Shown: piece after piece, positions 9,554 to 52,122 of the stretch
How positions within the stretch are numbered: the stretch's first letter is position 1
Layout of the letters: each line of letters begins with the position of its first letter
Source of the DNA: a virus
Reading direction: 5' to 3' (one strand)
Length of the DNA stretch: 64,000 nucleotides
Virus record (IMG/VR): IMGVR_UViG_3300023281_001121
Location: 6,250-70,249 of that record
The notes under the pieces: generated by a model
Databases searched by the model: none
The model's input: the letters and a program-made list of their open reading frames with translations, nothing else
Told to the model about the DNA's origin: nothing
Position numbers and translations under genes: made by a program

Positions 9554-9790
9554 ATGAAGAGATTCACAGTTAAGGGCACGGGGGCATTCCCCATCGACAT
9601 GCTTCGGTACGATGCATGCTGGCCAGATCACGCAGCGGACGCTATCGCTATCCAGGACACGTACCACCGACGTGAGCGCCAGCAAAACAGACGCTTCACC
9701 GTGACGCTTTGCGGGGTAGGTCAGGGCGCTCCCACGGTCGCGAGGTGGGAATCCTTCGGGGTGACCATCGAGGCGGTGCAGCCGCTGTGA
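9554..9790 (+). CDS. conserved small phage protein
   Basis: FTVKGTGAFPIDMLRYDACWP motif; GGAGG SD. Confidence 0.7.
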   Translation: MKRFTVKGTGAFPIDMLRYDACWPDHAADAIAIQDTYHRRERQQNRRFTVTLCGVGQGAPTVARWESFGVTIEAVQPL

Positions 9791-32202: not shown

Positions 32203-33765
32203 CTATTTTTTGAGCCTCTTCTCGGCGATCTTGGTTTCCAGTTCGAGCGTATCGAGCTTGACATCTCCACCGGCAACATTCTCGATGTCGACCTGGTGGT
32301 ACCTGCTCTTAATCCCGCGTTTGAATTTGCTTCGCTCTGTGGTCCTCGCGCTCGCCGACTGTCGCAAGTTGTACGGTCCACTGGAGATCCCCTGATCCGT
32401 AACGAGCGTGAGTTGAAGCTGACCGGATGAACCCACACCTATGTATGCTCCGGTCACCCTCTTGAGAAGAGACGCCTCTGGACCGTTCTCATAGAACGCA
32501 CCGAAGTCTGTTGATCCGATCGTAGCTATAGCGTCGATGTCTATTCCATCGTCGTCGTCTCCATCGAGGAGATAGATGCCATCACTGCGAGCGCCAAGGA
32601 AGTCCTGTCCGATCGCAGCGAAGGCATCAAAGTCGTAGTTCTCGTATCGCGCTGGTGCGCCCGTGTTCTGATTAAGCACCCATGTGTAAAGCTCCTCTGT
32701 TGTGTCCAGGAAGTAAGCGCCCTGCGCGTAGCCGGTCAACTCGGCAAGGGCTTGGATCAGGTAGGCCGAGTCACCGAATCCAGTCAGGGCAGCATAGACA
32801 TTGAGTCCGTACTGACCATCAGTGAACCCGTTCTCTGCCTGGTATGCGTTGAGGACTGCCGTGGCATCAACGAACCCGTTCAGCGCGTTGTAAATAGCAA
32901 GCGTGTACTGACTGTCGGTTCTGAGTTGAGCTAACTGAAGGACCGAGATCGCGTACGCGCTATCGACACGTCCTTCCAGTTGCAGCAGAGCGTTGAGGTC
33001 GTAGTGGACACCAAACTTTTCTTCTATGAGTTGGTATACATCTATAGCCGACTGCGCATCCAGATGACCGTTCGACTCAATGAATGTGTTCAGAGCATAC
33101 TGGGCAATCGCAGCTTGCTCGCGCGCCTCCCAGGCGTTGAGGTCGTAGGCCCCTGTCGCGATTCCATTCTCTTGCTGCTGATACGTCAGGTAGTCGTACG
33201 AACTGACGGCGCTCATCAACAGGTCAACATAGATGTCTATGCTGTACAGGCCACCGAGATAACCCTGAGCGAGAAGATAGATGTCCAGCTGATACTGCGA
33301 ATTGAAGACTTGTTCATCAGCCTCGAATGCCAGGAGGTCGTAGTTGCCCTGCTTCTGATCGTCGAGTTCAACAAAAGCGAGTAGCTGGTATTCCATCTCG
33401 CCAGCGGACCCTTCCAACTCGGCGTAGGCATTGAGAACGTACTTGCCAGAACCGATGATGTCGCCTTCTGCCTGGTATGCGTTTAGGTCTGCGTTGCCTT
33501 GAAGGACTGTGTTCTCAAACTCTTCGAACCCAGCGAGGAAATACGCACCGCCAAAGATCCCTCCCTTGGGATCTGTTTCGCCTTGACCGAGAGTGGCGTC
33601 GCCCGCTTGATACTGGACCCCGATCTCGACCTGGTACTCACTGTTGGCCTGCTGATCGTAGGAGGTGTAGTTGTGGAGGTATTGCCCCACGCCCAACGGA
33701 CCCTGGAGAGCCGACTTACCTTTATGTAAGACCTGCAGATGAACCGAAGTGACACGAATAGCCAT
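32203..33765 (-). CDS. tail protein: N-terminal docking-like motif, ~16-aa Tyr repeats, C-terminal podovirus tail domain
   Basis: MAIRVTSVHLQVLH; NGFxDxxYxLxxYxA-type repeats; WVLNQNTGAPARYENYDFDAF...DGIYLLDGDDDDG..IDA. Confidence 0.65.
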   Translation of the reverse strand: MAIRVTSVHLQVLHKGKSALQGPLGVGQYLHNYTSYDQQANSEYQVEIGVQYQAGDATLGQGETDPKGGIFGGAYFLAGFEEFENTVLQGNADLNAYQAEGDIIGSGKYVLNAYAELEGSAGEMEYQLLAFVELDDQKQGNYDLLAFEADEQVFNSQYQLDIYLLAQGYLGGLYSIDIYVDLLMSAVSSYDYLTYQQQENGIATGAYDLNAWEAREQAAIAQYALNTFIESNGHLDAQSAIDVYQLIEEKFGVHYDLNALLQLEGRVDSAYAISVLQLAQLRTDSQYTLAIYNALNGFVDATAVLNAYQAENGFTDGQYGLNVYAALTGFGDSAYLIQALAELTGYAQGAYFLDTTEELYTWVLNQNTGAPARYENYDFDAFAAIGQDFLGARSDGIYLLDGDDDDGIDIDAIATIGSTDFGAFYENGPEASLLKRVTGAYIGVGSSGQLQLTLVTDQGISSGPYNLRQSASARTTERSKFKRGIKSRYHQVDIENVAGGDVKLDTLELETKIAEKRLKK

Positions 33766-34967
33766 TAGCTAACGATCTCGTAGCCGATCTCTGCGGCGTT
33801 CACCTCTGCCATCGTCCATGGCGCTGTGGTATCAGGGTTGTCCTCATAGATGTGGTAGAGCGCCTGGAATTCAGATTCCGTCAGCGTCAGAGTCGTGCCG
33901 ACTCCCTCCGTAGTGCCTTCGAAGATGACAACGCGAGCAGTGCGCGTGCCTGTATCAAGCGTGTCCTTTGCGATGGCCATGACCTGCACCGCCTGGACCG
34001 ATCCGAACAGATCCTCCGGGACCACCGAAGTGAACGTGTCAACACGGTCCTTGTTAGTCGCGACGTTGGCCTCGTTGTACGTGGTGTCGAAATCATGCTG
34101 GACCTCGTCCACCATCAGCGCGTTGTTGGTGCCAGATTGAGGAGTGAAGTCAATCTCGCCGACAACTTCGGCTGATGGGTAGAGGACGTCGATGGTTGCA
34201 GGGTAAATAAAGTCCTGCTCCCCAGCGACAGCCGGATCAATAATGTGGAGATCAGTGATTCGATAGATAGCTCCGGAACCAATAGTTGAGTTGGGATACA
34301 GATCTCCAGACGAGAACCAGATCTGATCCATGACATCGGTGCCTCCGATCGACGTGTCGAGGCCATTACCAAGGAACCAAACGTCTCCGTCGACTCGGAC
34401 CTCTATCTCACCTACAGAGTTATCAATCTTGACCCGGAACTCAACGTAGTACCACTTGCCTAGCTCCAACGCATGGAAGGTCGAGTCGCCCGCAGCCTCT
34501 GCGTCGTCCTCTCCCTCCCAGAAGAATCCACTGCCGGTGCCCAACTGAATCCGCATGTACGCAAGGTTAGTCTCACCCTGATCACCGAAGAAGTTGAACT
34601 CAGTCGTGACGTGAGTGAAGTTACCGGAGTCGTCTCGGAAATAGAGGAACGTGTCATCACCATGGATCTGCGCTGGGTTCCATCCCTCCAACATCAGATT
34701 GAAGCCGACGATGTACTCGTCTTTCGACGGTAGATCTATCTTCACGTTCGCTGACTGCGACGCTCCGATGTTTCCCTTGAACCTCAAACATCCAGGCGCA
34801 GGGGAACGCGGCGACTGGGTACCCGAAGGCATAGTCGTCGGTCCACCTGTTGGCAGGATCTCGATGTTGTTACCGAGAACCGCTCCATCTTTCGTGAGCG
34901 TGTAACGCGCCTCCAGGTCCTGGAAGCCGCGATACTGGCTCCAGGATTCCATCCACACGACACTCAT
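33765..34967 (-). CDS. ConA/LamG-like putative receptor-binding protein, paralog 5 (diverged)
   Basis: ATG at 34967 (TAATG); MSVVWMESW, WYYVEFRVKIDNSVGEIEVRVDG, FTPQSG.N..MVDEV..DFDTTY, WTMAEVNAAEIG. Confidence 0.7.
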   Translation of the reverse strand: MSVVWMESWSQYRGFQDLEARYTLTKDGAVLGNNIEILPTGGPTTMPSGTQSPRSPAPGCLRFKGNIGASQSANVKIDLPSKDEYIVGFNLMLEGWNPAQIHGDDTFLYFRDDSGNFTHVTTEFNFFGDQGETNLAYMRIQLGTGSGFFWEGEDDAEAAGDSTFHALELGKWYYVEFRVKIDNSVGEIEVRVDGDVWFLGNGLDTSIGGTDVMDQIWFSSGDLYPNSTIGSGAIYRITDLHIIDPAVAGEQDFIYPATIDVLYPSAEVVGEIDFTPQSGTNNALMVDEVQHDFDTTYNEANVATNKDRVDTFTSVVPEDLFGSVQAVQVMAIAKDTLDTGTRTARVVIFEGTTEGVGTTLTLTESEFQALYHIYEDNPDTTAPWTMAEVNAAEIGYEIVS

Positions 34968-35752
34968 TACACAAAGATCCTTACCCCGATGCGGAACGCA
35001 TTGTTGGTCTGCGACTGGTTCGTTCCAGCAGGAACCGTTCGCTTGAGCCACCAACCTTGGTAGTCGCCTGCACTGAGATCAGGGATCACGATGCCGCTCG
35101 CGTAGTCGACCGGGTTGTTGTCATCGAAGTCGATCGTGAGTGCCGGGTCCGTATCCTCGTTGGCGATCACGCCGAGCGCGATGTTCTTCGCCTCGTCACC
35201 GATAGCGATCTGAATCACGTCCTGTCCAGGCGTGTTCTGCTCGACCCACATACGGATGTCGACCATCGCGTCCGTAGCGTGATCATTCTCCCAGTAGACA
35301 CCACGGAACTCGATGTCTCCCGCCTTGGCGTCAGCCTTGGCCACATCATCGAACATGTTGTTCGCGATGTTGGTGATCGTGATCGTGTTGGTCTGATCAC
35401 TGGATGGCAATGCGCCTGAGGTCACGGTGACCTTCAGCACTCCACCATTGCTCGCTCCCTGAATGGCGTAGGCACCATTCGTGGACACGTCCACCGCGAC
35501 ACCCGCTGTGCCGTTGAGAGGCGTCCACCGTAACGTGGTGTTGACACTGTCGAACGCCAGCGTGCCGTCACCCTCGTCGTTGCCAGCGGCGTCATCGATA
35601 ACCACGCCTGTGATGGTCGTTGGCGCGCTGGGCGTCTGCGAAAGAATGTCCTTGGTGCCCGCAGTGGATTTGGCTCCACCCAGGTCCAGGTTCGGATCGG
35701 TGTTCGCGGCACCTCCCGAGTGGACGATTTTCAGATCAGCTAATGTAGCCAT
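34967..35752 (-). CDS. tail/collar structural protein
   Basis: SGGAANTDPNLDLGGA...NMFDDV...IEFRGVYWEN...GWWLKRTVPAG family pattern. Confidence 0.65.
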   Translation of the reverse strand: MATLADLKIVHSGGAANTDPNLDLGGAKSTAGTKDILSQTPSAPTTITGVVIDDAAGNDEGDGTLAFDSVNTTLRWTPLNGTAGVAVDVSTNGAYAIQGASNGGVLKVTVTSGALPSSDQTNTITITNIANNMFDDVAKADAKAGDIEFRGVYWENDHATDAMVDIRMWVEQNTPGQDVIQIAIGDEAKNIALGVIANEDTDPALTIDFDDNNPVDYASGIVIPDLSAGDYQGWWLKRTVPAGTNQSQTNNAFRIGVRIFV

Positions 35753-35762
35753 GATTCACTCC

Positions 35763-37016
35763 TCAAATTGCACTGCCCCTGCGAGCGGTCTCCAGGGTTA
35801 CATAGTCAGGCGCGAGATAGGACGATTCCACTCCCGTACCCATCGTTGCAACGATCTGCCGCAAGCCTCTCTGCTCACGGAAGATCATCGCACCATTCTC
35901 AAAGTTGCTAACTGCAGACTTGTCTTCTTGGACGTTCGTGATCTGAGCCTCAAGGCCACCGATCACGATCCCGAAATCACTGAACCATGCGACGTTGTCA
36001 GACTTGGGGATGTCGAGTCCAGTGCCCTTCACCGCACCGTACGGCAGCACAGCACGTTGCTGGAACTCGTTCGTGTCAACCCCACTGATCCAATAGGTCT
36101 GATCGGCACAGATGTAAATGCCATCAGCCACTGCCTTCATCACGGTCACGTCGCTTGGGAACTGCAGATAGTTCATGTGCGGCTTCACAAGCCCGTAACG
36201 CATCGCGTCGGTGTACCAGACCACCTTCCCTTGAGCGATGTAGATGCGCCCGTTGTGGTACTCCAGGACCGTTCCGGGTGCCGGTGTGACCCCATGTTGA
36301 GTCTGCAGCCTGATGTCCTGATTGTTGGACACCTGGGTGATCCGGAACGAAGGCACGCCAGTGATGAACTCTCCGACTCGATACAGGCCTTCGCCGTTAA
36401 CTTCCGAACAGTAGACCCGCACCTTGCTGGCTTCCGTTGACGTGGGTATGTCGGTCAGCGTTATCGTTCCGCCGTCCGCTGTCACCTCAGCGATCTTCGC
36501 TAACGGTGTGCCACTTTCCTCGCCGTCGTCAGCGACGAACGTCATGGCAACCTGGTAGGTTCCTGCTGTTAATCCACCGCCGGTATCAGAGACAACCAGT
36601 GTTGGCTGATCAACAGGTGGAGTGATGCCCCACGGCTTGACGAGTCCATCCGCTGTGAGCCTGCCGGTCAGGAGTCCGTTCGAGTAATAGATGTCATTGT
36701 TCACGCTCACGTAGAACATCGGGTGTGGCCCTACGCCCATACGAATCATCAGGCGCACCCAGCTGCCAGACATCTTGACCAGTTCCCATAGGGTACCGCT
36801 CTCGACGAACAGAACTTTTTCACCGTTGGAGTAAAGCGTTCCGCGCTCGATCGTGCCGGTCCAGATTTTTGTCCGGCCACGACGACGTAAGAGGTTGCCC
36901 GTGTCGGTGATGTCGTAGTTGACGCTGCGCCTGAGCGCAGTGACCGGCAACTCCTCAGCACCAAGGATGTTGTTCTCACCGTCAGGGAAGCCAGTGTATT
37001 TCGGATACGTCGGCAT
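35763..37016 (-). CDS. podovirus tail tubular/stabilisation-like protein
   Basis: LRRSVNYDITDTGNLLRRRG N-terminus, Ig-like GGGLTAGTYQVAMTFV insert, NGRIYIA...WYTDAM. Confidence 0.6.
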   Translation of the reverse strand: MPTYPKYTGFPDGENNILGAEELPVTALRRSVNYDITDTGNLLRRRGRTKIWTGTIERGTLYSNGEKVLFVESGTLWELVKMSGSWVRLMIRMGVGPHPMFYVSVNNDIYYSNGLLTGRLTADGLVKPWGITPPVDQPTLVVSDTGGGLTAGTYQVAMTFVADDGEESGTPLAKIAEVTADGGTITLTDIPTSTEASKVRVYCSEVNGEGLYRVGEFITGVPSFRITQVSNNQDIRLQTQHGVTPAPGTVLEYHNGRIYIAQGKVVWYTDAMRYGLVKPHMNYLQFPSDVTVMKAVADGIYICADQTYWISGVDTNEFQQRAVLPYGAVKGTGLDIPKSDNVAWFSDFGIVIGGLEAQITNVQEDKSAVSNFENGAMIFREQRGLRQIVATMGTGVESSYLAPDYVTLETARRGSAI

Positions 37017-37333
37017 CAGCGATCAATAACTAGAAGCAGCCCTTCGGCTTCAAGTGTATTGCCCAGGTCTGTGCTGACGGTGTACGTCACCTTGTAGGTC
37101 TTGCCGTCGACCCCCGCATCGATACGCTGCTGTGCGATCTGCCCAGTGAACGTCGCACTCGACGGGAACGTGAGATCGGTGGTCGCGACGACAGAGCCAT
37201 CAGCCAGCACTTCCTCCTGCCCGACCGAGTCGACGGCGCTGATGGTTTCAGCTGGCGTCTGCACCATCTTCGGGGCGAAGTCCATGTCATAGAGGCGGGA
37301 CTCAGCCGGTTGCTTTTCAAGCAGGTCTGGCAT
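37016..37333 (-). CDS. phage fibre-tail adaptor-like protein
   Basis: KQPAESRLYDMDF...AGVDGKTYKVTYTVSTDLGNTLE. Confidence 0.7.
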   Translation of the reverse strand: MPDLLEKQPAESRLYDMDFAPKMVQTPAETISAVDSVGQEEVLADGSVVATTDLTFPSSATFTGQIAQQRIDAGVDGKTYKVTYTVSTDLGNTLEAEGLLLVIDR

Positions 37334-37342
37334 GATGTTCCC

Positions 37343-38098
37343 CTAGACCGTGTTCCCGCTCACCCGCATGGTGACAGTCGTGTTCTGCGCGCCAAGGCCA
37401 GCAGTCAACGTAAGCTCCAACCAGCAACCTTGTGCGGCACCCGCTGTCAGGTTCTGGGAGTTCGCCACGTTCTTGTTGGCTGAGTCGAACGTGCCTGCTG
37501 GGGCTGTTTGCCGATTGGACGCACCGTTGTCGCCAGTGTCATCCAGTGTCGCTGGCAGCATGAAAGCCACCACCGTCTGAGGATCGGCCTGCTCGATGAT
37601 GACCGCACTGGTCAGCGTTAGCGTGCCGTGGTTGTTCTTGAAGAAGATCTTGTCGTAGTACGTTCTGGTACTTCCTCCGGACGCGTCCGCAGCAGCATCA
37701 TAGAAAGGCCTGCGTATCTCTAGGACCGCTGGCTCCATGCTCGCGATCGTGGTGTCGGTATCCTGGTCACGGACGGTCACCGTTCCCGTAGTCGACGCCG
37801 ACTTGATTATCTTCAGCACGCGCTCGAATGCAGTTCCCGAGATGAGTACGACGCCCACACCGCTCAGTGTTGCGACATCGTTGACCAGTTCGCCAGCTGC
37901 ATTACGCCCATGGACGGTGATCGTCTGGGTCGTATCGCCAGAATTACTGGACAGGATCTCGATCTCATCCGTGGCCACGATGTCGACAAACACAACACGC
38001 TTGGTCAGCGAGATCGCCCCGCCGATGTTTGTCGGAGTGTCATCATCGGGCATCGTGGCTGAGCCATAAGCGACGATGTCAGCAGCTACGATTGGCAT
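37343..38098 (-). CDS. tail/collar structural protein, probable paralog of 34967-35752
   Basis: IVAADIVAYGS...GGAIS...YDKIFFKNNH...QGCWLELTLTAG. Confidence 0.65.
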   Translation of the reverse strand: MPIVAADIVAYGSATMPDDDTPTNIGGAISLTKRVVFVDIVATDEIEILSSNSGDTTQTITVHGRNAAGELVNDVATLSGVGVVLISGTAFERVLKIIKSASTTGTVTVRDQDTDTTIASMEPAVLEIRRPFYDAAADASGGSTRTYYDKIFFKNNHGTLTLTSAVIIEQADPQTVVAFMLPATLDDTGDNGASNRQTAPAGTFDSANKNVANSQNLTAGAAQGCWLELTLTAGLGAQNTTVTMRVSGNTV

Positions 38099-38101
38099 AA
38101 T

Positions 38102-38320
38102 CTATCTCCTAGTCAAAACTCGGCAGAAATCATCTGCCAGCCATAATGATCTGGTGCCTTCGGCAGTCCACAAGGACCCAGCGCCACCGCCTTCGATGCC
38201 AAGGCGAAGTCGCCCAAAGTGCGCACGAAGAAAAACGCTAGGCGCACCAGCAGGGAGCGTACCAAGTCTCCCGCGATGCATCCGCGTGTCGACTGAGCCT
38301 GGCTGGACATGCGAAGACAC
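38102..38320 (-). CDS. small putative tail protein
   Basis: Fills the operon gap; LWTAEGTRSLWLAD resembles the WxA tail of the 1021-aa protein. Confidence 0.4.
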   Translation of the reverse strand: MSSHVQPGSVDTRMHRGRLGTLPAGAPSVFLRAHFGRLRLGIEGGGAGSLWTAEGTRSLWLADDFCRVLTRR

Positions 38321-38321
38321 A

Positions 38322-38873
38322 TCACACTCTCGTTAGAGTGATCTCGCCTGGGTTAGGCGTGTTGGCATCGAACGTCTGATCGATCTGAATTCCGCTGATA
38401 CCAGGAGGGGAATTCCTGCCAGTGGGAGACTCCACGACTGGAGATCCAGCAAGCAGACCGAAGAACTGATACATCTCATCGATCTTCGGCTGCTGAATAG
38501 ACACGCCTGAGACCGCCTGAGAGATGCTGACGTTGACGAAGGCACCTGGTGCGATCGGGTTGCCACCACCGTCAGAGACGATGACGCCTGACCCTACTGA
38601 GGCCTGCACATGAGTCGGACCAGGACGATCAGCGAACTGAATGCGCCATCCATCCAGCATGGTCATGACGATGAGCGAGTTGCCGATCCCTGGAATGGGG
38701 ATCTTGCCCTCAGCCTTAGCGATCTCAGAGTCATCGATGAAGTCTGGCTGCATACGATGGAACGCTATCGCATCGAAGACTTCCTGGATCGTGATGTCCA
38801 GAGTAGGCAACTCGATCTCCACGATCGCGGTGTCGTGATGGAACGTGAACCTGAGGTCTTGAGTTTCAGGCAT
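38322..38873 (-). CDS. virion structural protein
   Basis: ATG at 38873; ITIQEVFDAI...MLDGWRIQF. Confidence 0.6.
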   Translation of the reverse strand: MPETQDLRFTFHHDTAIVEIELPTLDITIQEVFDAIAFHRMQPDFIDDSEIAKAEGKIPIPGIGNSLIVMTMLDGWRIQFADRPGPTHVQASVGSGVIVSDGGGNPIAPGAFVNVSISQAVSGVSIQQPKIDEMYQFFGLLAGSPVVESPTGRNSPPGISGIQIDQTFDANTPNPGEITLTRV

Positions 38874-38874
38874 G

Positions 38875-39147
38875 TCACTGCTTAGTGGCAATCGCGGATA
38901 GGGCTAAGTCTCGCTTCTCGCATTGAGCGATCAGTGCTGTCCACTCGCGCTTCACCCGCTGGGCTTTCTGAATCGCCTCTTCGAAATGAGCGATGTCCTT
39001 GTCTGCCTGCGCGACCGCCGCCTTGAGTTGGTCGGCATCGTACATAGGCCATTTCTCCCTGAAGGCCTGGCGCTCCTCCGGAGTACGGAGTATCGCTCTG
39101 ACCTGGTCCTCCAGGGAGATTTCGGCATGCCCGTTCGTCTCGCTCAT
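38875..39147 (-). CDS. small coiled-coil protein (possible tail chaperone)
   Basis: 90 aa, helical heptads. Confidence 0.5.
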   Translation of the reverse strand: MSETNGHAEISLEDQVRAILRTPEERQAFREKWPMYDADQLKAAVAQADKDIAHFEEAIQKAQRVKREWTALIAQCEKRDLALSAIATKQ

Positions 39148-41648
39148 GTCGCGATAGTATCAGGCGTACGAATCGCGGCCTGTATCAGACCGCCGCTGCT
39201 GATGGTGTTCTCAATCTCGAACGGCTGGATGGGATCAACCGAGCCACCGTTGCGCACCCTGATCAACACCGGGATGTCTGTCAGGTACACCAGGTTGGCG
39301 CTTGAGATCGTTACCGGGTCACCGCCACTAGCGATTACATCGAGGATCGGGATGTACGCGGTGTCGGCAGCGTTCAGATCGTACGGGATCTCATTGATGC
39401 CGTAGACGTCCGACGTATCCCAGTTGTTATCACCACCACCACTCAGAGGAGTGTGCGTGATCGTCGTCGTGCCGATCGCAGTTGCCACGCCCCAGCTGTT
39501 GTCCGTGCGGTTGTTGATGATGTCGCCAATCTGCGCGGCGTTGCCGTCAGAGAAGTCGACGCCCGAGTCGGTTAGCACCGTGGCTGGCGCAGCATCTGTG
39601 CCTGTGATCGTGCCACCCGAGTGATCGACCGCGCTCAGGACTAGATCTGTGCCAGTGAACGATGAGTATCGGAACCGAAGCTCCCGGATATTCACCGTGT
39701 CGACCACGCGGATCACACCGCTCTCTGGCGTGTCGTTCGGAACCGTCGCATCGAGACGGATCTGAGTGTCGTCGACACCGTTGAACACCGTCGCTGGAGC
39801 AGCCATACCGTGCTGTGCTTTATCGATTGAGCCAGCAGGCCCTGTCAGCACGAAGATGCCGACGCGATCAGAGTCCGTTCCGTTCACACCCGTCACCGAC
39901 GCGTTGATGAACAGCGGTGGGTTGCGGACATTACCATCGTCATCGATCAGCTGGAACGCCTGCACGTCGGCAGGGGCAACATCGGTCAGAACCACACCAG
40001 GCGCACCGAAGTAGATGCCACCAGCGAAGGTGCCGAGAGGTGCTGACTTCGGTGTCGTGATCGTTCTCGTTGATGCAACGGTGGCGAAATCGGTGTACGA
40101 CGCCTGCACAGGGTTGTCGCCAACCTGGGTGATCGCGTTCTGAGTGAAGAACCGCGTGTTGCGCATGATCAGGTCGCCGGTCGCGCCATCGTCATGGTCA
40201 GCGACTACCGTGCCCTGAGCAACCAGCGCATCGCCCGAGTCATGGAAGTAGAGCGTCTCGCCTTCGACGAACGCGCCTGTCTGCGTGTTGTACTGGGCCT
40301 GGAGATCCTCGCCGATGTAGAACTCTCCGCGAATGCCTTCGGCATCGGTGAGGTAGGTACCGCCGCCACCTCGACCACGTCGACACTCAGCCTTGTGGAA
40401 CTCGTACAGGTCAGTCACCGTGTTGGCGTTGCAGTCGACCGCGATCGAGTAAGGGAACGCCGCCTGGCCACCGCCGAGCGACACATCTGTGGCCGCGAAC
40501 ACGATCGTTGGATCTAACGTCAAGTTGGCTGGGCCGATGTCGGAAGGGGCTACCGCTGTCATGGCACCGCCGCCAGCACCACTCAAGGTACCCGTCGCGC
40601 CAGTGAAGTCAGCGAGCGCGGGTCCGATGAGGTAATAGCTCAGGACGATGTTCGGGTTAGAAGCTCCAACTTCGGTGACGATGCCCTGGATCGTCGAGTC
40701 CGAATCATCGGTGATCACCTCGCCAACGACGAACGTACCGGAACTGGTACCGGCAGCTGTCATCTGACGCAGCCCGGTGGCGTTGTTCAGGTCACCGCCT
40801 GTCGCCAACGGGACAGGCTGTCTGCCGCCCGTGGTCAGATCGATGATGAAGTTGTCGTACAGCGAACCGTACTGACGAGCGAACACCGTGATCTCTGCGT
40901 CGTCGATCTCGACATTGGTCGACTTCACTTTTACCAGGATGTCGACCTGCCCAGAACCCCACCAACGAACACCGGAGCCGACCGCGCGCGAGACTAGCTC
41001 CGCACCGTCCTGAAGGATGTACAGCGTGCTGTTGACGAAGATCGTACCCAGTGTGAATACGTTCGTCCAAAGGCTCTCGCCGGTCTCAGATGCGAGACCG
41101 CCGCCTGACGCGGCAGCGTAGGTGTCGGTGAAGTCTCCCGCAGCGGACGAGCCACCCACCGTGTAGGGTTCTGTCGCGGCGTCATCGAACAGGTCGGTAG
41201 CAGGATCATCAGGACGTATCCAAACGACGCCCACCTCCGCACTGTAGCGTTCATCGAACGCCAGGATGGTGGCTGTGTCACCGGTCGTCGTGCCGGTGAT
41301 CGTGCGGCCCAGGTCGGCAGTGCCGAACGGTGTGCCCGCGCCTGAGCCATCGTACGAGATCGCGCGGATCTCCCCAGCTGCCCAGCCTAATGTCGCGAAC
41401 GCGCCTCCTGTGATGTACTCAGAGGATTCATCATCGAAGAACCACTGGTTGATCCAGGTGAAGGCTGTCGGTGTCTGAGCCGACATCGGGACGGGGTCGT
41501 CCATCTGATCCGGCTCATCGAAAAGGTCTTGGAGGGCGCTGTAAAGTGCGATAGCGGTGTCGGTAACCGTGGGAGATACAGCTGTGTCGCGGTAGACCCG
41601 CTTCGCTGTGTAGTCGATGTCCCAGCGGTTGCCTAGAAATGTGCCCAT
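39144..41648 (-). CDS. large tail fibre/adhesin-like structural protein
   Basis: ATG at 41648 after GGAGGAG; LYSALQDLFDE..MDDPVPMSAQTPT; G/T/D-rich beta repeats. Confidence 0.65.
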   Translation of the reverse strand: MGTFLGNRWDIDYTAKRVYRDTAVSPTVTDTAIALYSALQDLFDEPDQMDDPVPMSAQTPTAFTWINQWFFDDESSEYITGGAFATLGWAAGEIRAISYDGSGAGTPFGTADLGRTITGTTTGDTATILAFDERYSAEVGVVWIRPDDPATDLFDDAATEPYTVGGSSAAGDFTDTYAAASGGGLASETGESLWTNVFTLGTIFVNSTLYILQDGAELVSRAVGSGVRWWGSGQVDILVKVKSTNVEIDDAEITVFARQYGSLYDNFIIDLTTGGRQPVPLATGGDLNNATGLRQMTAAGTSSGTFVVGEVITDDSDSTIQGIVTEVGASNPNIVLSYYLIGPALADFTGATGTLSGAGGGAMTAVAPSDIGPANLTLDPTIVFAATDVSLGGGQAAFPYSIAVDCNANTVTDLYEFHKAECRRGRGGGGTYLTDAEGIRGEFYIGEDLQAQYNTQTGAFVEGETLYFHDSGDALVAQGTVVADHDDGATGDLIMRNTRFFTQNAITQVGDNPVQASYTDFATVASTRTITTPKSAPLGTFAGGIYFGAPGVVLTDVAPADVQAFQLIDDDGNVRNPPLFINASVTGVNGTDSDRVGIFVLTGPAGSIDKAQHGMAAPATVFNGVDDTQIRLDATVPNDTPESGVIRVVDTVNIRELRFRYSSFTGTDLVLSAVDHSGGTITGTDAAPATVLTDSGVDFSDGNAAQIGDIINNRTDNSWGVATAIGTTTITHTPLSGGGDNNWDTSDVYGINEIPYDLNAADTAYIPILDVIASGGDPVTISSANLVYLTDIPVLIRVRNGGSVDPIQPFEIENTISSGGLIQAAIRTPDTIAT

Positions 41649-41740
41649 GAGTGACTCCTCCAAATGGATGGGGGGCTTTAGAGTCACTCTTGCGACTTAC
41701 GAGCCGAGTTTTACCAGAATTCCTGTCTCGCTGCTACCTG

Positions 41741-44934: not shown

Positions 44935-44940
44935 CAGCAA

Positions 44941-47900
44941 TCAGCCCCCTCGTGGGTTAGGCTCGAACACGGTCCAACGCGTCCCTTGAGCATCCGCTGT
45001 CCAGGCGGTGGGCTGTGATTGTGAACGCCAGCCGGTAGGGCATTGCTCTGCGTACCAGACTTGGGGTGGGTCTGCGTTCCATAGGGTTGGTAAACATGCC
45101 GCCTCCCACGCGGTGTCATCTGCTTCAGCAAGCCAGACGCCACCGATCTCTTCATCGGGGGCTTGCCATTCTGTCCCAGGTTCGTCTGATTGTGCATCAA
45201 CCAGTAGCGTCTCGGCTACCCATAGGCTCTTACACTTCGCAGCAACCCAGACCGTTGGGTCACAATCTGCCACCCAGAAGTTGCAATCTTCAAGGGCGTG
45301 GTCGACGAATAGCGCAAAAGTTGGGTCGAGCCACTCGTACGGAATGACGTAAACAGCATCCGGATCTCCACCCCATGAGATCGGGATCACCCGAGTCTCA
45401 TCGAGAATACCGCGAGCTTCCCACGGTATGCCGTGGCTGAATTCTTTGAAGAAGATCTGCTGCCATGCGATCGGGATGAGGTTATCGAACGTCACGAAGG
45501 TCTCTTGCAGCCACTCGATCGGACTCGAATGATCGGACGCAAAGCCACCTCTGAACTCGTAGGGTATGACCGAGTCAGCAGCAGTGAATGGTGATGTCCA
45601 GTCGAACGGAATCGAGTCGCCAGCAGTCGCATCGAGGACCCATTCGACCGGCATGGAGTGCTGAGCATCGAAGCTGCCTTGCCACTCGATCGGCATGACG
45701 TTACCGGAGGCGACGACTCCACCCCATGAGATGGGCATCGGATGATCCGTGTCGAGGAACCCAGACCAGTCGATCGGTATCTGATGATCCAGCAGTAGCT
45801 CAGCGAACCACTCTATCGGCATGCCGTTATTTTTCAGCACGTCCTGGGTCCACTCGACCGGGATCGCATTGTCCTTGTCGATGATGATCGTCAGCCGCCA
45901 CTGATACGGGATGACATGATCCATCAGCAACTCAAGCTGCCACTCAACCGGAATAACATGATCGAGATTCAGCGCCTGCTGCCATTCGATAGGCGTCTCA
46001 TGCAGGGACACAATGACGTTCTCAAGCAACCACTCGATCGGCATCTGATGATCTAAGTCGAGTTCGGTAAGCCACTCGATCGGTGCTGGCTCGTCGACCT
46101 GTAGATCAGTCTTCCATTCGAACAGGATCGCTAAGTCCGCACCCGGATCTGCGAACGGTCCTTTCCATGAAGCAGGTATCTGTCGATCGAGAGCTAACTC
46201 AGTCGTCCATGTGATGGGAATAACCGAGTCGTGCGACGGGAACATCCGCACGTTCCACTCGTACGGAATGATGTGATCTTGCCTGATGCCAGTGACCCAC
46301 TCGACCGGAATGCTGTTGTCGAGATCGAGGACTCCGGACCAGTTGATCGGGATCTGATAATCGACACCGAACGGTCCTTGCCATTCTATTGGTGGGAGGT
46401 GGTCAGAACTTATCCCTGCCAGCCATGAGACAGGAATCTGATGGTCGCCGGGGGTAGTTACGTTGATCCATTCGAATGGCACCTGGTGATCGAGCAGGAG
46501 ATCGAGCTTCCACTCGACCGGGATGGAATTGTCAGGCTCAACGAACCCAGACCAGTTTATGTTGAGAGCATTATCAGACGCGATGCCTTGCAACCATGAG
46601 ACCAGGATGATCGAGTCGTGTGGCACGATCTCGTTGATCCACTCGAACGGGGCCTGGTGATCGAGCAGTAACTCTGTTATCCACTCGACTGGTATCACAT
46701 GATCCGACTGAACCTGCGGCTGTCGCCAGTCAATCGGGGTCTGATGATCGAGGCCAAGACCCTGCAACCATGAAACGGGGATGACGTGATCGAGGCCAAG
46801 ACCCTGCAGCCACTCGACAGGTATCTGCCGGTCCATCAACAGTTCGGTTGTCCACTCGTACGGAATGATGTGATCGATCAGTAACTCACCACTCCACTCG
46901 ACAGGTATCTGATGATCGAGAGCTAGTTCGGTTGTCCACTCGATAGGAATTATGTGATCCGAATCGACCGGCGTCTCAGCCGGGACGTTGTACAACACCT
47001 CAACCGCTAGGGACGAAACTCGCAGATTCGGGTTAGCTTCTGTCTGAAGCACCTCGACAGTTTCAGAAGTGACCCGCACAGGAGCGGTCGAATCAGCGTG
47101 CAGCGCCTCTGTCGCCAGAGTAGAGACACGCGTGGTTGCTACCGCCGGTTTGTAGAGAACCTTGATCGCAGCATGGCTAAGGCGAACTGGAGCCGTGTCG
47201 TCCTGCGTCAGGACCTTAATTGCAGCATGACTAAGGCGAACGGGAGCCGTGTCGTCCTGCGTCAGGACCTTGATCGCTGAATGGGTAAGGCGAACTGGAA
47301 GCGCGGTGTCTGCTACGATCGGAGCCGCGTCTCCGTTCGTGCCGATCCCCAGATAGTCCAGGTGCATCGTACCGGTGTGAACAGTCCGACCAACGCCACC
47401 CCAACCGGCTGCAGTTATTCTGCTTCCGCTTGTGTCAGTAGTGTCGACGTCCCAACCGGACGGCTCCTCCTGGCCATCAGCCCAGAACTTCGCCTGGAGA
47501 GTGACAGTCGCTCCAGTGCCGTTGATCCTGAGCCTGATCCAGAGCCACTCATTCGTTGGAACCCACGAACCGAAATCACCGAAGCGATCGAACCATGGTC
47601 CCTGTAAGTCGACATTCGACCCATCAGCTATGTTAGTGAATGACCCGGCGTCCCAACGACCAATGTTGAAAACACCTGTATCGCGAATCCCAGCGTAATA
47701 GGCAGTCCCACTACCACTGCCGCCAGAGGCTCTTCCATATAAGTGAAACTGATTGTCGTCGTCGTTCGTTTGCCGGAACCGAGCAACCAATTCGATGTTG
47801 GCGCGGTTAGTATCGCCATCAATCGCATCAAGACTTTGGAGTTGTTGACCGCTATCGCCAGTGGTGAACCTAAGAGTCCGGTCGTCCTCCTCACCTACAG

Positions 47901-48006
47901 CGGGATTCTCAACAGAGATCGCGGTTTCAGTAGCCCACCTGTTGGTGAAGGTCGTGCTATTGGAGCCAGTAGTTTGGCCCGCCAGCGTCTCGGAATAGGT
48001 GGTCAT
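44941..48006 (-). CDS. 1021-aa modular tail scaffold/fibre: lectin-like head, six docking-like motifs, 38 x 14-aa repeats
   Basis: WLWIRLRING...LQAKFWADG.EEPSGW lectin-like domain; DHxIPxEW repeats; WxA C-terminal repeats. Confidence 0.7.
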   Translation of the reverse strand: MTTYSETLAGQTTGSNSTTFTNRWATETAISVENPAVGEEDDRTLRFTTGDSGQQLQSLDAIDGDTNRANIELVARFRQTNDDDNQFHLYGRASGGSGSGTAYYAGIRDTGVFNIGRWDAGSFTNIADGSNVDLQGPWFDRFGDFGSWVPTNEWLWIRLRINGTGATVTLQAKFWADGQEEPSGWDVDTTDTSGSRITAAGWGGVGRTVHTGTMHLDYLGIGTNGDAAPIVADTALPVRLTHSAIKVLTQDDTAPVRLSHAAIKVLTQDDTAPVRLSHAAIKVLYKPAVATTRVSTLATEALHADSTAPVRVTSETVEVLQTEANPNLRVSSLAVEVLYNVPAETPVDSDHIIPIEWTTELALDHQIPVEWSGELLIDHIIPYEWTTELLMDRQIPVEWLQGLGLDHVIPVSWLQGLGLDHQTPIDWRQPQVQSDHVIPVEWITELLLDHQAPFEWINEIVPHDSIILVSWLQGIASDNALNINWSGFVEPDNSIPVEWKLDLLLDHQVPFEWINVTTPGDHQIPVSWLAGISSDHLPPIEWQGPFGVDYQIPINWSGVLDLDNSIPVEWVTGIRQDHIIPYEWNVRMFPSHDSVIPITWTTELALDRQIPASWKGPFADPGADLAILFEWKTDLQVDEPAPIEWLTELDLDHQMPIEWLLENVIVSLHETPIEWQQALNLDHVIPVEWQLELLMDHVIPYQWRLTIIIDKDNAIPVEWTQDVLKNNGMPIEWFAELLLDHQIPIDWSGFLDTDHPMPISWGGVVASGNVMPIEWQGSFDAQHSMPVEWVLDATAGDSIPFDWTSPFTAADSVIPYEFRGGFASDHSSPIEWLQETFVTFDNLIPIAWQQIFFKEFSHGIPWEARGILDETRVIPISWGGDPDAVYVIPYEWLDPTFALFVDHALEDCNFWVADCDPTVWVAAKCKSLWVAETLLVDAQSDEPGTEWQAPDEEIGGVWLAEADDTAWEAACLPTLWNADPPQVWYAEQCPTGWRSQSQPTAWTADAQGTRWTVFEPNPRGG
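45330..46960 (-). repeat. about 38 coding repeats of 14-17 aa, consensus DHxIPxEWxxxLxL
   Basis: Counted in the translation of 44941-48006. Confidence 0.9.
47159..47320 (-). repeat. three tandem 54-bp coding repeats (DTAPVRLSHAAIKVLTQD)
   Basis: Unit starts at 47159, 47213 and 47267; near-identical DNA. Confidence 0.9.
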
Positions 48007-48015
48007 CTAGAACAT

Positions 48016-49044
48016 CTAGGTAACTAATTTAATGCCAAACTGCGCGGCGTTAACAGATGTCTCTGTCCAGTTGATTCCACCGTTAGGATCATTCTCGTAC
48101 ATGGCTTCTTTGTAATGGTAGTCAACGCCGAGAGACAGATTTGCACTGTCTACCTCCGTCACGTTGCTCCTGGCCACCGTAGCTATCTCTCTGAACCCCG
48201 CCTCTTCTTTGCGAGCCAACAGAGACACCTGAACACCGAACACGTCACCGATACTTGCCCCGGCTAGAGCGGCAAACCCATAGAGATCTTTATTGGTGGC
48301 TGTGGCCGAGTGAACGTACGTGGTGTCGTCATCGGGTGGGGCCATTTCATCGACGCGATCGGCGTTGGTCGAGCCAGCACCAACCGCCGTGAAATTATTA
48401 GTGGCCCCATCTGCGTCTGGCAGCAGCGTCTCGACAAACACATCCCCTAACCTGGCAGTGTTGTCTGAACCGCTATCGTCCAGAACATAAACGTCATCGA
48501 CCAAAGCATCAGTGAAGCTATGCCCGAAGAACCGAATCGTATCGATGAACGCGTCGGTGCCGTTCAGAGTATCCGCTGATGTCCCGGTGATGACGTTCTG
48601 CCCGTCAACGTAGACATCGTAGGTGCCGGTCGAGTCATGGAGCGTGACGTCCACCTCGATGTAATACCAGGTAGACATGGCAAGCCCCAACCCGCTACTA
48701 ATCCCAAGTTGCGTCGACCCTCGATCGATTGAGATCTCGCCGCTGGCATTCGTTCTTAGGGTTATCTTCTCCACGCCTACGCCGAACGTATTGAAGATGT
48801 CTACGAGTTGAGGACCGGCGTTAACCAGGCGGTATGCGAATCCCACCACGAACGATGCAGTAGTTGGCGGAACGGCGTGAGAAGCAAAGCCATTAGTGAA
48901 GACCATCTGCATGGCTCTGCCCACGCCATCTCTTCCTGCCGTGGACTGCGTCACGTAAGCGTCATTGTCGAAGTTCCACCCGCCTCGCCTTTGCTCCGCA
49001 TCATCGTCGTACTGTTCGAAACCTTCAATGAAAAGCAATGCCAT
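48016..49044 (-). CDS. ConA/LamG-like putative receptor-binding protein, paralog 4
   Basis: MALLFIEGFEQY; WYYIEV; GDVFVETLLPD; PDDDTTY; WTETSVNAAQFG. Confidence 0.75.
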   Translation of the reverse strand: MALLFIEGFEQYDDDAEQRRGGWNFDNDAYVTQSTAGRDGVGRAMQMVFTNGFASHAVPPTTASFVVGFAYRLVNAGPQLVDIFNTFGVGVEKITLRTNASGEISIDRGSTQLGISSGLGLAMSTWYYIEVDVTLHDSTGTYDVYVDGQNVITGTSADTLNGTDAFIDTIRFFGHSFTDALVDDVYVLDDSGSDNTARLGDVFVETLLPDADGATNNFTAVGAGSTNADRVDEMAPPDDDTTYVHSATATNKDLYGFAALAGASIGDVFGVQVSLLARKEEAGFREIATVARSNVTEVDSANLSLGVDYHYKEAMYENDPNGGINWTETSVNAAQFGIKLVT

Positions 49045-49048
49045 AGTT

Positions 49049-50071
49049 TTACGCCTGTAGTTTGTAACCGAACTCGCCTGCGTCGACCTCACTGGCAGTC
49101 CAGACTGCAGCACCTGATGGGTGGTCAACGAATAGGCTCTGCCACCAACTATAATCTCCGTACGCCGGATAGAAGTCTGCGCTTTCGCCTTCAGTCACTC
49201 CATCGTACGCGACAGCCCTCATCGTTCGCGGACCTGTCTCTGTCTTCCTGGAATGCACATTAACAGCAACCGCATGCACTGTGGTTGGACTGCCGGATAG
49301 ATTGTCGTGCGCATGACGATCGGTACTGGGCGCGACAGTGTCTTCGTTATAGGTTGTGTCATCGTCAGGGTCTCCAACCTCGTCCACGTTCTGCCAGTTC
49401 GCCCCGGCTGACGGAGTGAACTCAGCGTCAGCGCCAACGCCAGACGGATAGAGAGTTTCGATACCACAATCGCCAATGAAGTCGTTCAGCCTGGAGCCAG
49501 TGGTGTCCAAGATGTAGAGGTCGTCGAACCCGCTGTCGAGCGTGTTGCTGCCAAGGAGTTGCAGTGCGTTCGTGCCAACCGGGCCTGAACCGTTAAGCGT
49601 GTCGAGTCCGGTCTCGTTTATCCACACTTCATTGTTGACACGGACCTCAACCGTCCCAACCGTATTGCTAATCAATGCCTTAATCTCGATGTGATTCCAG
49701 ACACCTAACGGAAGAGCTTTGTCGCTGAAGGCAATGTCTGTAGTGCCACCGCGACTGACGACGATCTTGTTCCCGATGCTGGACCCGAACCCGAGATGAA
49801 TCCATTCATTCCCATAGAGTCGCACCCAGTCGCTCGTCTCGCCTCTATCAAGCTTCAGAGCGAATCCAATGATGATCGTTACGCTTAGGGGATAAGGATG
49901 AGCAAGATTCGTATTTCCCAGCAGAACAGTAGCCATGCCAACGCCGTTTCGCCCGGTTTGCGCGTTCGCACCTGTCGCCTCACCGCTGCCGCCTACAGCC
50001 CATTTGTAAGGGAACTTTTTGATCTGATCTGACGAGTAGTAGTCGAACCCGTCCATGAAAAGCAGCGCCAT
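49049..50071 (-). CDS. ConA/LamG-like putative receptor-binding protein, paralog 3
   Basis: MALLFMDGFDYYSS; WNHIEIK; GSRLNDFIGD; PDDDTTY; DHPSGAAVWT. Confidence 0.75.
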   Translation of the reverse strand: MALLFMDGFDYYSSDQIKKFPYKWAVGGSGEATGANAQTGRNGVGMATVLLGNTNLAHPYPLSVTIIIGFALKLDRGETSDWVRLYGNEWIHLGFGSSIGNKIVVSRGGTTDIAFSDKALPLGVWNHIEIKALISNTVGTVEVRVNNEVWINETGLDTLNGSGPVGTNALQLLGSNTLDSGFDDLYILDTTGSRLNDFIGDCGIETLYPSGVGADAEFTPSAGANWQNVDEVGDPDDDTTYNEDTVAPSTDRHAHDNLSGSPTTVHAVAVNVHSRKTETGPRTMRAVAYDGVTEGESADFYPAYGDYSWWQSLFVDHPSGAAVWTASEVDAGEFGYKLQA

Positions 50072-51093
50072 CAAACCACCTCGAATCCGAATTGCCCACT
50101 GTTTATTTCTGCCGCAGTCCAGACCGCAGCGCCTGATGGATGATCTTCGAATATGGTTTGCGCCCACTGATACGTGTTGAGAGTAGGAGTGAAGACTGCG
50201 CCGACACCTTCGGTTGTCCCGTCATGAGCAACAGCCCTCACATCACCAACTCCATTCACCGTTCGCTTAGCATACGCGTTAACGGCTACTGCATGAACGG
50301 TGTCAGGGGTTCCCACTAGATTCCCGTGAGCGTGACGATCTTTGTCGGTAGAAGTAGATGACTCAACGTAAGTCGTATCGTCGTCTGGCACCAACTCATC
50401 GACAGCCTCCCAGTTAGTTCCTGCTAGAGGGGTCCAATCGGAACTCGCTCCGACGCCCGTAGGATAGATAGTCTCTATCCGCACATCCCCGATAAAGTCA
50501 TTCAGCCTAGAGCCGCTGGTATTCAAAATGTAGACGTCATCGAGAATAGGAGCGATGTCATTCGACCCGAAGAAGATGATGCTGTCGCATTCAGCGTCTC
50601 CTGACAGGGACGTGTCCAGGCTAGTTATCTCTGGGATGCCAGCGACACTAGATCCGTTAAGGCGCATCTCCAGCGTGCCTGCCGTGTTATGGAACGCTAT
50701 CTTTATCTCGATGTAGTTCCAAGTGTCAGGCGAGATCAGCGTAGCGGAACGACCGATTTCAACGGTGCCTCCAGTCTGAAACTGCAGCGCCCCACCGTTA
50801 GTCATAAAGACGCCGACTTGCGTGGTTGCGCCATCTCTGAATCGAAGGAATTCAGTATTCGCTTGGCGGGAATACTTAAACGCAAACCCGATCACCACGG
50901 TCGAAGTAACCGTGAATGCCTTCTCTATGTTAGCGAGCGCGAGCATGTTGATTGCCTGACCAACACCGTCGCGTCCCACGACAGCATTCAGCCCTGTCGA
51001 GACGAAGAACCCGCTAGGGGTGAACTTGTTCTCCAGGTCGTCTGTCTGATCGCTGGTGTAGTGATCGAACCCTTCCATTAAGATCAGCGACAC
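50071..51093 (-). CDS. ConA/LamG-like putative receptor-binding protein, paralog 2
   Basis: MSLILMEGFDHY; WNYIEIK; GSRLNDFIGDVRIETIYP; PDDDTTY. Confidence 0.75.
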   Translation of the reverse strand: MSLILMEGFDHYTSDQTDDLENKFTPSGFFVSTGLNAVVGRDGVGQAINMLALANIEKAFTVTSTVVIGFAFKYSRQANTEFLRFRDGATTQVGVFMTNGGALQFQTGGTVEIGRSATLISPDTWNYIEIKIAFHNTAGTLEMRLNGSSVAGIPEITSLDTSLSGDAECDSIIFFGSNDIAPILDDVYILNTSGSRLNDFIGDVRIETIYPTGVGASSDWTPLAGTNWEAVDELVPDDDTTYVESSTSTDKDRHAHGNLVGTPDTVHAVAVNAYAKRTVNGVGDVRAVAHDGTTEGVGAVFTPTLNTYQWAQTIFEDHPSGAAVWTAAEINSGQFGFEVV

Positions 51094-51102
51094 CGTTCTC
51101 TC

Positions 51103-52122
51103 CTACGCCTGGATCTTGTAACCGAACTCGCCAGAGTTTACTTCGCTCTCGGTCCACACGGCAGCGCCAGTAGGATGATCCTCAAAGAGAGCCTGCTGCC
51201 AAAAGTAGTCACCAAACGTAAAATACTGATCTGCGCTCTCGCCCTCGGTCGTTCCGTCGTAAGCGACCATCCTCACTGTTCTCGCTCCAGCTTCTGTCTT
51301 CTTCGCCCGAGCGTTAACGGCCACCGCGTGAATGTCGCCAATGTCTCCGACTAGATTCCCCACAGTGAATCTGTCCTTGCTGGAGACAACCGTGTCCTCG
51401 TTGTAGGTGGTGTCGTCGTCAGGCACGACCTCATCGACGTTCTGCCAATTCGATCCAGCAGAAGGTGTGAAGTCAGTAGCCGCTCCAGCGCCATCAGGGT
51501 AAATGGTCTCGATGTACACCGGGCCTAGAAAGTCGTTGAGACGAGACCCTGTTGTATCAAGAATGTAGAAATCATCGATCACCGGCACATTGGAGTTGTC
51601 ACCAATGATGTTCACCATGTCGATGGTCGCGTTGGCGCTAACCTGCGTGTCTTGATTGGTCAGCGGACCTATCTCTACATTCCCATCGACGCGCAGTTCA
51701 ATCGTCCCGACCGAGTTATCGATCTTGATTCGCAATTCAACGTGAAACCAGGTGTCCACGGCGAACGTGCTTGACGACGTACCCAGAACCGTAGTCGTGC
51801 CTCGACGCACAACGAAATGATCCGAAGCATCGAACCCGAGAGACAGCTGGATGGTGGCTAGATCATAGAACCGAATGTGTGAAACGCTAAGATTATTCGT
51901 GAACTTGTGATTGAACCCGATGATGATCTCACCGACACTCGTAAAGTTCCTGGCGATGTCTCCCAGACCCTGTAGCGAAATGGCAGATCCGCTGCCGATC
52001 GCACCGGTTACTGCGTTCATCGAGGAGGTGTAGAAGAGTCCTGTGCGTTGCCACTTGGTGGCAAGGTCTTCGTATTGGTCGCTACTGTAGTAGTCGAACC
52101 CATCCATAAAAAGAAGGGCCAT
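51103..52122 (-). CDS. ConA/LamG-like putative receptor-binding protein, paralog 1
   Basis: MALLFMDGFDYYSS; WFHVELRIKIDNSVG; GSRLNDFLG; PDDDTTY. Confidence 0.75.
   Translation of the reverse strand: MALLFMDGFDYYSSDQYEDLATKWQRTGLFYTSSMNAVTGAIGSGSAISLQGLGDIARNFTSVGEIIIGFNHKFTNNLSVSHIRFYDLATIQLSLGFDASDHFVVRRGTTTVLGTSSSTFAVDTWFHVELRIKIDNSVGTIELRVDGNVEIGPLTNQDTQVSANATIDMVNIIGDNSNVPVIDDFYILDTTGSRLNDFLGPVYIETIYPDGAGAATDFTPSAGSNWQNVDEVVPDDDTTYNEDTVVSSKDRFTVGNLVGDIGDIHAVAVNARAKKTEAGARTVRMVAYDGTTEGESADQYFTFGDYFWQQALFEDHPTGAAVWTESEVNSGEFGYKIQA

Follow-up and report, generated by a model that had tools for sequence, protein, structure and literature searches.

What would a podovirus-type phage do with five paralogous lectin-like tail proteins, and what does their conserved half hold on to? 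The question is raised by a stretch of 64,000 nucleotides (nt), hereafter the window, which covers positions 6,250 to 70,249 of the 71,247-bp IMG/VR virus record IMGVR_UViG_3300023281_001121; the record stems from an uncultured phage, is labelled linear and is estimated by CheckV to be 91% complete. The minus strand of the window encodes a podovirus-type structural module in which an array of four adjacent genes and one distant copy belong to a single family, and the original prediction regarded their products as a set of distinct receptor-binding heads on a common attachment domain. Our analysis, which is computational throughout, points to a more specific arrangement, to which we assign a probability of roughly 60%: the phage would build non-covalent 'lectins on a string', fibres bearing several lectin-like heads. 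In this model, each paralog combines a fast-evolving concanavalin A (ConA)-like head with a conserved C-terminal β-sandwich that would act as a socket and take up a peptide of the form R-(V/L)-(S/T)-x5-(V/A)-L as an extra β-strand. The protein encoded downstream of the array, the string, would supply a row of such plugs, with the variable heads displayed at exposed fibre ends.

The array, located on the minus strand, begins with paralog D (51103-52122, 339 amino acids (aa)), which is followed by C (50071-51093, 340 aa, GTG start), B (49049-50071, 340 aa) and, as the last gene, A (48016-49044, 342 aa); the distant copy, paralog E (33765-34967, 400 aa), resides on the same strand. All five open reading frames (ORFs) are present as originally described, and a profile search with the C-terminal domain (C-domain) yielded exactly five copies in the entire record. 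The proteins are members of phrog_2448, a family without assigned function in PHROGs v4 (E 4e-56 for A, 3e-35 for B, 2e-48 for C, 8e-42 for D and 3e-23 for residues 160-398 of E); positions 1-334 of the 335 in the profile are covered by A to D and positions 106-333 by E, the N-terminal domain (N-domain) of which carries insertions. The alignment of the five paralogs extends over the whole length and contains 33 invariant columns, and the shared motifs quoted in the original prediction are present, with W126, E130, VDE, D.DTTY and W326-T327 among the invariant columns. The greater variability ascribed to the N-terminal halves is borne out as well: they are less conserved than the C-terminal halves in 10 of 10 pairs, with identities of 41% vs 67% between B and D and of 28% vs 40% between A and D. 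Domain by domain, C and D are 38% identical in the N-domain and 58% in the C-domain, the branches of N-domain trees are about three times longer than those of C-domain trees, and across the family, column identity averages 31% over the entire protein and 43% within the C-domain.

Paralog D was modelled with AlphaFold2 on the basis of 70 homologs. The model, which has a predicted local distance difference test (pLDDT) value of 93.6, divides the protein into a ConA-like jelly roll (residues 1-204) and a smaller β-sandwich similar to carbohydrate-binding modules (CBMs; residues 205-339). The lectin-like fold proposed earlier is recovered in the predicted N-domain, which both VIA and Foldseek (E 6e-7, probability 1.0) recognise as a ConA-like lectin/glucanase jelly roll. 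The best match is 5mqs_A (VIA Z 17.4, root-mean-square deviation (rmsd) 2.7 Å, 169 residues aligned), 3zyp_A scores similarly (VIA Z 17.2, rmsd 2.7 Å, 176 residues aligned), and the top matches (Z 17.4-16.8) comprise the lectin-like domain of the sialidase BT_1020, Cip1, glucuronan lyase, CBMs and legume lectins. The heads would most likely bind host surface glycans and widen or strengthen adsorption. The same matches raise the question of whether the ConA-like domain might degrade capsule or exopolysaccharide as a lyase or glycanase, docked or not, as glucuronan lyase 2zzj (Z 16.8), the alginate lyases 6kcv and 5gmt, GH16 and GH131 are all found near the top. However, non-catalytic lectin and CBM domains match the fold equally well, only scattered residues are invariant across the family, and no enzyme family is recognised by sequence: in Pfam, paralog A matches Laminin_G_3 below threshold (21.6 bits vs a cut-off of 27.6) and the other four paralogs have no match. 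Neither a catalytic motif nor a calcium- or sugar-site motif was identified in the paralogs, and a sequence search of the PDB returned no solved structure related to them. A glycan-degrading activity thus appears very unlikely to us.

The C-domain, modelled on its own (residues 205-339, pLDDT 93.0), bears a modest resemblance to CBM27, CBM32, CBM35, discoidin-type domains and IFT25. It also recurs as the C-terminal domain in other PHROG families, joined there to different N-terminal parts. We read it as an attachment domain. A candidate for the attachment site is located in the gene directly downstream of the array. The 1021-aa string protein (44941-48006, minus strand) comprises an N-terminal domain of about 225 aa, six docking motifs with a period of 18 aa (aa 239-338; 46993-47292, minus strand), a region of 14-aa repeats and a Trp/Cys-rich C-terminus. 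The motifs, which were located by a scan with the regular expression R[VIL][ST]x5[VAIL][LIY] and follow the consensus R(V/L)(S/T)x5(V/A)L, fall into two types: three of type I (RLTHSAIKVL and, twice, RLSHAAIKVL) and three of type II (RVSTLATEAL, RVTSETVEVL and RVSSLAVEVL). Among the tail ORFs of the window, the expression matches six times in this protein, once in a 520-aa protein encoded next to paralog E, and nowhere else. The motif region matches phrog_13560, again a family without assigned function (residues 291-341), and no Pfam family; the protein additionally matches phrog_6079 'tail protein', and homologs of it follow the array in the related loci L004, L006 and L010. A search of the literature found no paper on the motif or on docking. 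The genes are tightly packed, with an intergenic spacing around the array of -1 to 9 nt and a 1-nt overlap between the start of B and the stop of C.

Paralog E would be served by its own one-site partner, the 520-aa protein (32203-33765, minus strand), the start of which overlaps the stop of E (TAATG, spacing -1 nt). Its single motif, RVTSVHLQVL, is located at residues 4-13 and is accompanied by a repeat region and a C-terminal virion-protein domain (residues 357-519, phrog_26502 'virion structural protein', E 1e-24). The 71-kb relative L010 retains a module of three genes in the same order (261 aa, an E-like copy and a homolog of the 520-aa protein), the partner homolog starting MVARVTQTYLEVL. 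E and the 520-aa protein are a separate, equally old module.

Linkage of this kind extends throughout the family. In 76 non-duplicate loci, two or more tandem motifs are present in 31 of the 81 genes directly downstream of a family gene vs 9 of 1092 other genes (odds ratio 75, p 4e-31), and many of the remaining downstream genes carry related variant motifs that are missed by the regular expression. The linkage is seen in podovirus contigs, in the siphovirus contig L008 and in Chi-like phages, and the partners are otherwise unrelated, ranging from long repeat fibres, a tailspike-like protein and Sipho_Gp37/minor-tail proteins to one protein with a GP4 Gp80 domain. In addition, the type of motif varies with the clade of the paralog. 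Two or more motifs without Glu at position 8 (non-E motifs) are found in 13 of 13 arrays with a member of the A clade vs 4 of 26 arrays without one (p 3e-7); arrays with A-clade members only have non-E motifs only, and in four mixed arrays, including that of the window, two to three non-E motifs are followed by three E-V-L motifs. In the proposed mechanism there would be at least two orthogonal classes of plug and socket, A docking on the three type I motifs and B, C and D, which are non-A clade members, sharing the three type II (E-V-L) motifs.

The structure of a complex between paralog D and residues 228-345 of the 1021-aa protein was predicted in three runs, together with three controls. 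The runs gave values of 0.92, 0.91 and 0.92 for the interaction prediction score from aligned errors (ipSAE) and share at least 97% of their contacts, whereas all three controls scored 0.00. When the tool was calibrated, 58 of 80 solved complexes and 2 of 110 mismatched pairs attained this score level, counts that apply only roughly here since our own alignment was used. According to the prediction, contact is made by motif 6 (RVSSLAVEVL, residues 329-338; partner interface residues 321-343), which would insert antiparallel between the C-domain strands 203-209 (IETIYP) and 266-275 (AVAVNARAKK) and touch the DDDTTY loop. The IETIYP strand and the DDDTTY loop are among the conserved signatures that had been listed in the original prediction. 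The predicted interface takes in the family's most conserved segments, conservation being somewhat higher at its positions than elsewhere in the C-domain (2.67 vs 2.33 bits, p 0.018). The predicted placement of D, a member of the non-A clade, on an E-V-L motif is in line with the covariation rule.

The lectins-on-a-string arrangement is supported by the tight gene spacing, the linkage, the covariation, the complex score, the conservation of the interface and the modular recurrence of the C-domain, and also by the gene position, as array and string are encoded just after the adaptor gene. The original notion of variable heads on a common attachment domain stands insofar as the C-terminal half is predicted to bind a motif of the neighbouring protein, but the target is probably not the tail itself. 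It might be argued that the paralogs are nevertheless independent receptor-binding proteins that sit on the tail hub by means of their conserved half, and that their motif-bearing neighbours are unrelated fibres; the lectin-like domains, the location of the genes in the tail module and the common conserved half would all suit such a role. Under this reading it would be unexplained why tandem motifs are enriched 75-fold in the adjoining downstream gene, why motif type follows paralog clade and why the complex scores 0.92 vs 0.00, and we consider it quite unlikely.

The docking as such would also be compatible with the reverse polarity, in which the sockets are part of the tail: the paralogs would be fixed fibre anchors, with their ConA-like domains on the adaptor or nozzle, that grip the N-terminal motifs of the fibres. 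Fibres usually join virions by their N-terminus, the array directly follows the adaptor gene, and in many relatives the motifs are located at the extreme N-terminus of the partner, from residue 4. On the other hand, the partners have C-terminal tail-type domains of their own (phrog_26502 in the 520-aa protein, Sipho_Gp37/'minor tail protein' in L045), the rope of phage A1002 has been solved with its N-terminal part at the distal end, and several motifs per partner combined with a fast-evolving head suit display better. We therefore judge anchoring of this kind to be unlikely, although it deserves consideration. Even less credible, and indeed very doubtful, is a role of the paralogs as assembly chaperones that bind nascent fibre strands and are absent from the finished virion. 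Their genes adjoin the fibre genes and are probably co-translated with them, and binding of an extended strand is typical of chaperones. However, the genes of known fibre chaperones mostly lie downstream of that of the fibre, and four to five diverged, two-domain lectin-like chaperones acting on one fibre would be unprecedented. Presence in the virion has indirect support from phage AchV4, which encodes a fold-level homolog named 'virion structural protein'; in the AchV4 paper, most proteins of this kind received the label on detection by liquid chromatography-tandem mass spectrometry (LC-MS/MS), and two proteins of about 36-38 kDa encoded after the tail-fibre gene were detected by LC-MS/MS. 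That the paralogs are virion proteins is an inference, as are the stoichiometry, a dimerisation of the subunits, the orientation (display or anchor) and sugar binding.

Several points weigh against the lectins-on-a-string arrangement. A ConA-like fold, here a modelled one, is no proof of sugar binding, and the fold matches of the C-domain are modest (Z ≤7.6) and are themselves carbohydrate-binding modules. The statistics on linkage and covariation ignore shared ancestry, and for roughly half of the arrays the strict regular expression yielded no partner. In the predicted complex, the partner peptide has a pLDDT of 40-54 and is mostly disordered apart from the contact. One pair has been folded, and the pairings of A with type I motifs and of E with the 520-aa protein are based on covariation and synteny alone. 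Finally, the numbers of copies and motifs are not proportional (1/3, 2/6, 4/6 and 4/at least 3), and these counts across loci rule out a simple 1:1 stoichiometry of motifs to paralogs.

With regard to the string protein itself, about 39 tandem 14-aa repeats of the form DHxIPxEW occupy aa ~345-895 (window 45330-46975). They are also present in the homologs of about 1000 aa in L004 and L006 and in a 612-aa protein of L007, they match neither Pfam families nor PDB sequences, and in siphoviruses they do not travel with the lectin family. These repeats were considered as the docking ('rope') sites and rejected, as the siphovirus and Chi arrays lack them and D is predicted on the 18-aa motif. Similarly, the N-terminal ~225 aa were considered as a sixth head of the family, for which the profile comparison was non-significant (E 0.13). 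In the four-copy relative L001, the partner (L001:13537-14313) is not a 14-aa-repeat fibre: it has a Pro-rich N-terminus, three motifs and one DHxxxEW unit, after which comes an apparent β-helix tailspike domain. This layout indicates that close relatives differ in the distal or proximal modules to which the motif string is fused.

How old is this repertoire? The claim that the duplicates are old and maintained was confirmed: synonymous sites are saturated in both halves (proportion of synonymous differences 0.66-0.88), exact DNA matches between copies reach at most 17 nt, and the duplicates are old for these reasons. In maximum-likelihood trees, A groups with L004_g2, the second copy of L004 (99/99), within a separate old clade of 21 sequences (support 0.93), and B groups with L001_g4 (82/82, and 91 in the C-domain tree); these groupings show that the copies of the window predate its split from these relatives. 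The RecT-mediated reshuffling that had been suggested finds no support. A RecT-family gene does exist in the plus-strand early region (12862-13902, Pfam PF03837, E 1e-43), but it would find no usable homology in the paralogs, whose shared tracts do not exceed 17 nt, whose synonymous divergence is saturated and which have separate orthologs in other phages. Trees of the N-domain and of the C-domain show no supported conflict, and recent recombination or gene conversion between the paralogs was rejected in view of the short tracts, the saturation and the non-conflicting trees. Ancient exchange may have taken place, since the C-domain identity between paralogs of the same genome (67-76%) equals that between orthologs.

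The family is by no means confined to the window. It comprises at least 817 database proteins at E ≤1e-5 and is carried by 331 IMG/VR stretches and 149 GenBank phage records, the latter mostly from Chi-like Salmonella, Proteus, Caulobacter and Brevundimonas phages. Within 8 kb, 54 of 86 loci have one copy, 19 have two, nine have three and three have four; as 32 of the 86 have two to five copies, the original statement that a multi-copy repertoire is unusual for a podovirus was too strong. In related podovirus contigs, the place behind the adaptor gene is likewise taken by four copies, two copies or one; a siphovirus contig carries two copies behind its tape-measure region, and Chi-like siphoviruses have three, along with a related phrog_10924 gene, after the tail-fibre gene. 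It might be hypothesized, with about even odds in our estimation, that a widespread and so far undescribed plug-and-socket system, consisting of ~140-aa sockets and phrog_13560 motifs, extends from GP4-related podoviruses to flagellotropic Chi-like siphoviruses. The sockets (the C-domain of phrog_2448 and related families) would capture strands of the form R-V-T/S-Q-x-x-x-E-V-L with a period of 18 aa, the motifs would be placed at exposed ends of otherwise unrelated tail proteins, the lectin heads would be interchangeable and loaded non-covalently, and the orthogonal classes would let several types of head coexist on one fibre.

Two partner proteins encoded outside the window are of interest here in their own right. 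In Salmonella phage SeF2 (L003:12247-14376), a 709-aa phrog_7226 protein follows three phrog_2448 genes and a phrog_10924 gene, and its N-terminus contains about six repeats of 17-18 aa that end in G-E-(A/V)-L; they are likely a diverged docking motif. In L029, a single phrog_2448 gene is directly followed by one (9064-9879) for a 271-aa protein with six docking motifs at its N-terminus and, at its C-terminus, a Pfam Gp80 domain, that of the GP4 fibre I subunit (E 1e-18). This combination suggests hierarchical or branched chain-like fibres joining both systems.

Should the docking prove real, host recognition would be modular at the level of the protein, beyond that of the gene, across a large family: heads could be exchanged by swapping a small gene, and the fibre would keep a generic string of motifs. 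Two PHROG families, 2448 and 13560, would be given a function, the conservation of the C-terminal half would be explained, and the principle of the recently solved chain-like fibre would be extended to a second, unrelated family of subunits. It would further provide a simple orthogonal pair of peptide and domain for displaying binding modules on phage tails, and would suggest candidates, open to testing, for those accessory tail proteins of Chi-like phages that are still unresolved.

The genes surrounding the two modules include that of the capsid protein, which shares about 52% identity with its counterparts in Pseudomonas phage Itty13 and in the Ralstonia GP4/Gervaisevirus group. On the minus strand, the large terminase (60456-61988), the portal (57085-59331) and the major capsid protein (54631-55749) are followed by a 259-aa adaptor-like protein (52719-53498, phrog_399 'structural protein'), the gene of which lies just upstream of the array and marks the start of the tail module. 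Its counterparts at the same position in L001 and L006 match Pfam SU10_adaptor, and the protein itself shows a weak match to chain 26fb_T of phage A1002 (E 0.006, sequence search). Between this gene and the array are two 97-aa genes. Further minus-strand genes of the module encode proteins of 927 and 847 aa after the 1021-aa protein, an Hc3-like protein (35763-37016), a 261-aa protein directly before paralog E (34967-35752), and proteins of 520, 498, 790 and 362 aa after paralog E. The 261-aa protein is 58% identical to its counterpart in L010. A 251-aa protein (37343-38098) is paralogous to it, which gives the tail module another set of duplicates; both match phrog_13135, a family without assigned function. 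The structural module is closed by a 2985-aa ORF (18234-27191, minus strand), the product of which carries an LPD38 'large polyvalent protein' domain at its C-terminus (Pfam E 8e-44); a giant gene is found there in GP4-like phages as well.

Parts of the proposed system resemble arrangements known from elsewhere. In the cohesin-dockerin pairs of cellulosomes, tandem sites of a scaffold are loaded non-covalently with interchangeable carbohydrate-active modules, and the pairs have orthogonal specificities. This is an analogy only, as the folds are unrelated, the cellulosome is bacterial and extracellular, and the site in the window would be a single β-strand and not a folded cohesin. In phages, lectin-like jelly rolls are known to add glycan binding to siphophage baseplates, as in the CBM2 of the evolved Dit of Lactobacillus phage J-1 (5ly8), to which the N-domain is similar in fold (5ly8_A, VIA Z 13.3, rmsd 3.4 Å, 172 residues aligned). 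However, the module of J-1 is a covalent insertion in a tail protein, while those of the window are separately encoded and predicted to plug on. The phrog_2448 proteins of Chi-like phages have been predicted to be carbohydrate-binding tail proteins, binding to sugars or the flagellum being proposed from the predicted fold, and no docking partner was described (PMC9409062). They belong to the same family (tblastn E ~1e-10), are encoded in tandem and are followed by a protein with about six motif-like repeats at its N-terminus; in contrast to the window, they are only ~22% identical, belong to siphoviruses, and their array follows the tail-fibre gene instead of the adaptor gene.

The closest solved analogue is the chain-like fibre of the podophages GP4, VP1 and A1002, in which dimers of a small subunit are strung on a rope protein by β-sheet augmentation, A1002 having two different subunit proteins on different segments of the rope (PMC13730344). 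The C-domain was considered as a homolog of GP4 gp80 (PF23140) and the idea was dropped, with no Pfam Gp80 match at E ≤1 and no PDB sequence match; GP4 chains are absent among the top 50 listed fold matches of the C-domain (Foldseek, VIA). An attempt to map the tail proteins of the window onto the solved GP4 and A1002 chains by sequence likewise yielded only the weak adaptor match, and the proteins of 1021, 927 and 847 aa had no sequence match to these chains. In Claudette, a relative of GP4, the adaptor gene is closely followed by two genes at approximately the position of array and string in the window, one of 140 aa, as long as gp80, and one of 325 aa, possibly the rope. A scan of the latter did not find the 18-aa motif. 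The window phage is related to GP4 (52% identity of the major capsid protein). With GP4, VP1 and A1002 it would share the non-covalent loading of β-sandwich subunits on tandem sites, which is predicted for the window, and it does share the grouping of subunit and rope genes in the tail module near the adaptor and nozzle genes, with six motifs of 18-aa period in the gene directly after the array and this linkage conserved in relatives. It differs from them in the larger subunits (340-400 aa vs 140-171 aa) with an additional ConA-like head, in the number of paralogs, which reaches five, and in a docking site that is defined in sequence by the 18-aa repeat of phrog_13560.

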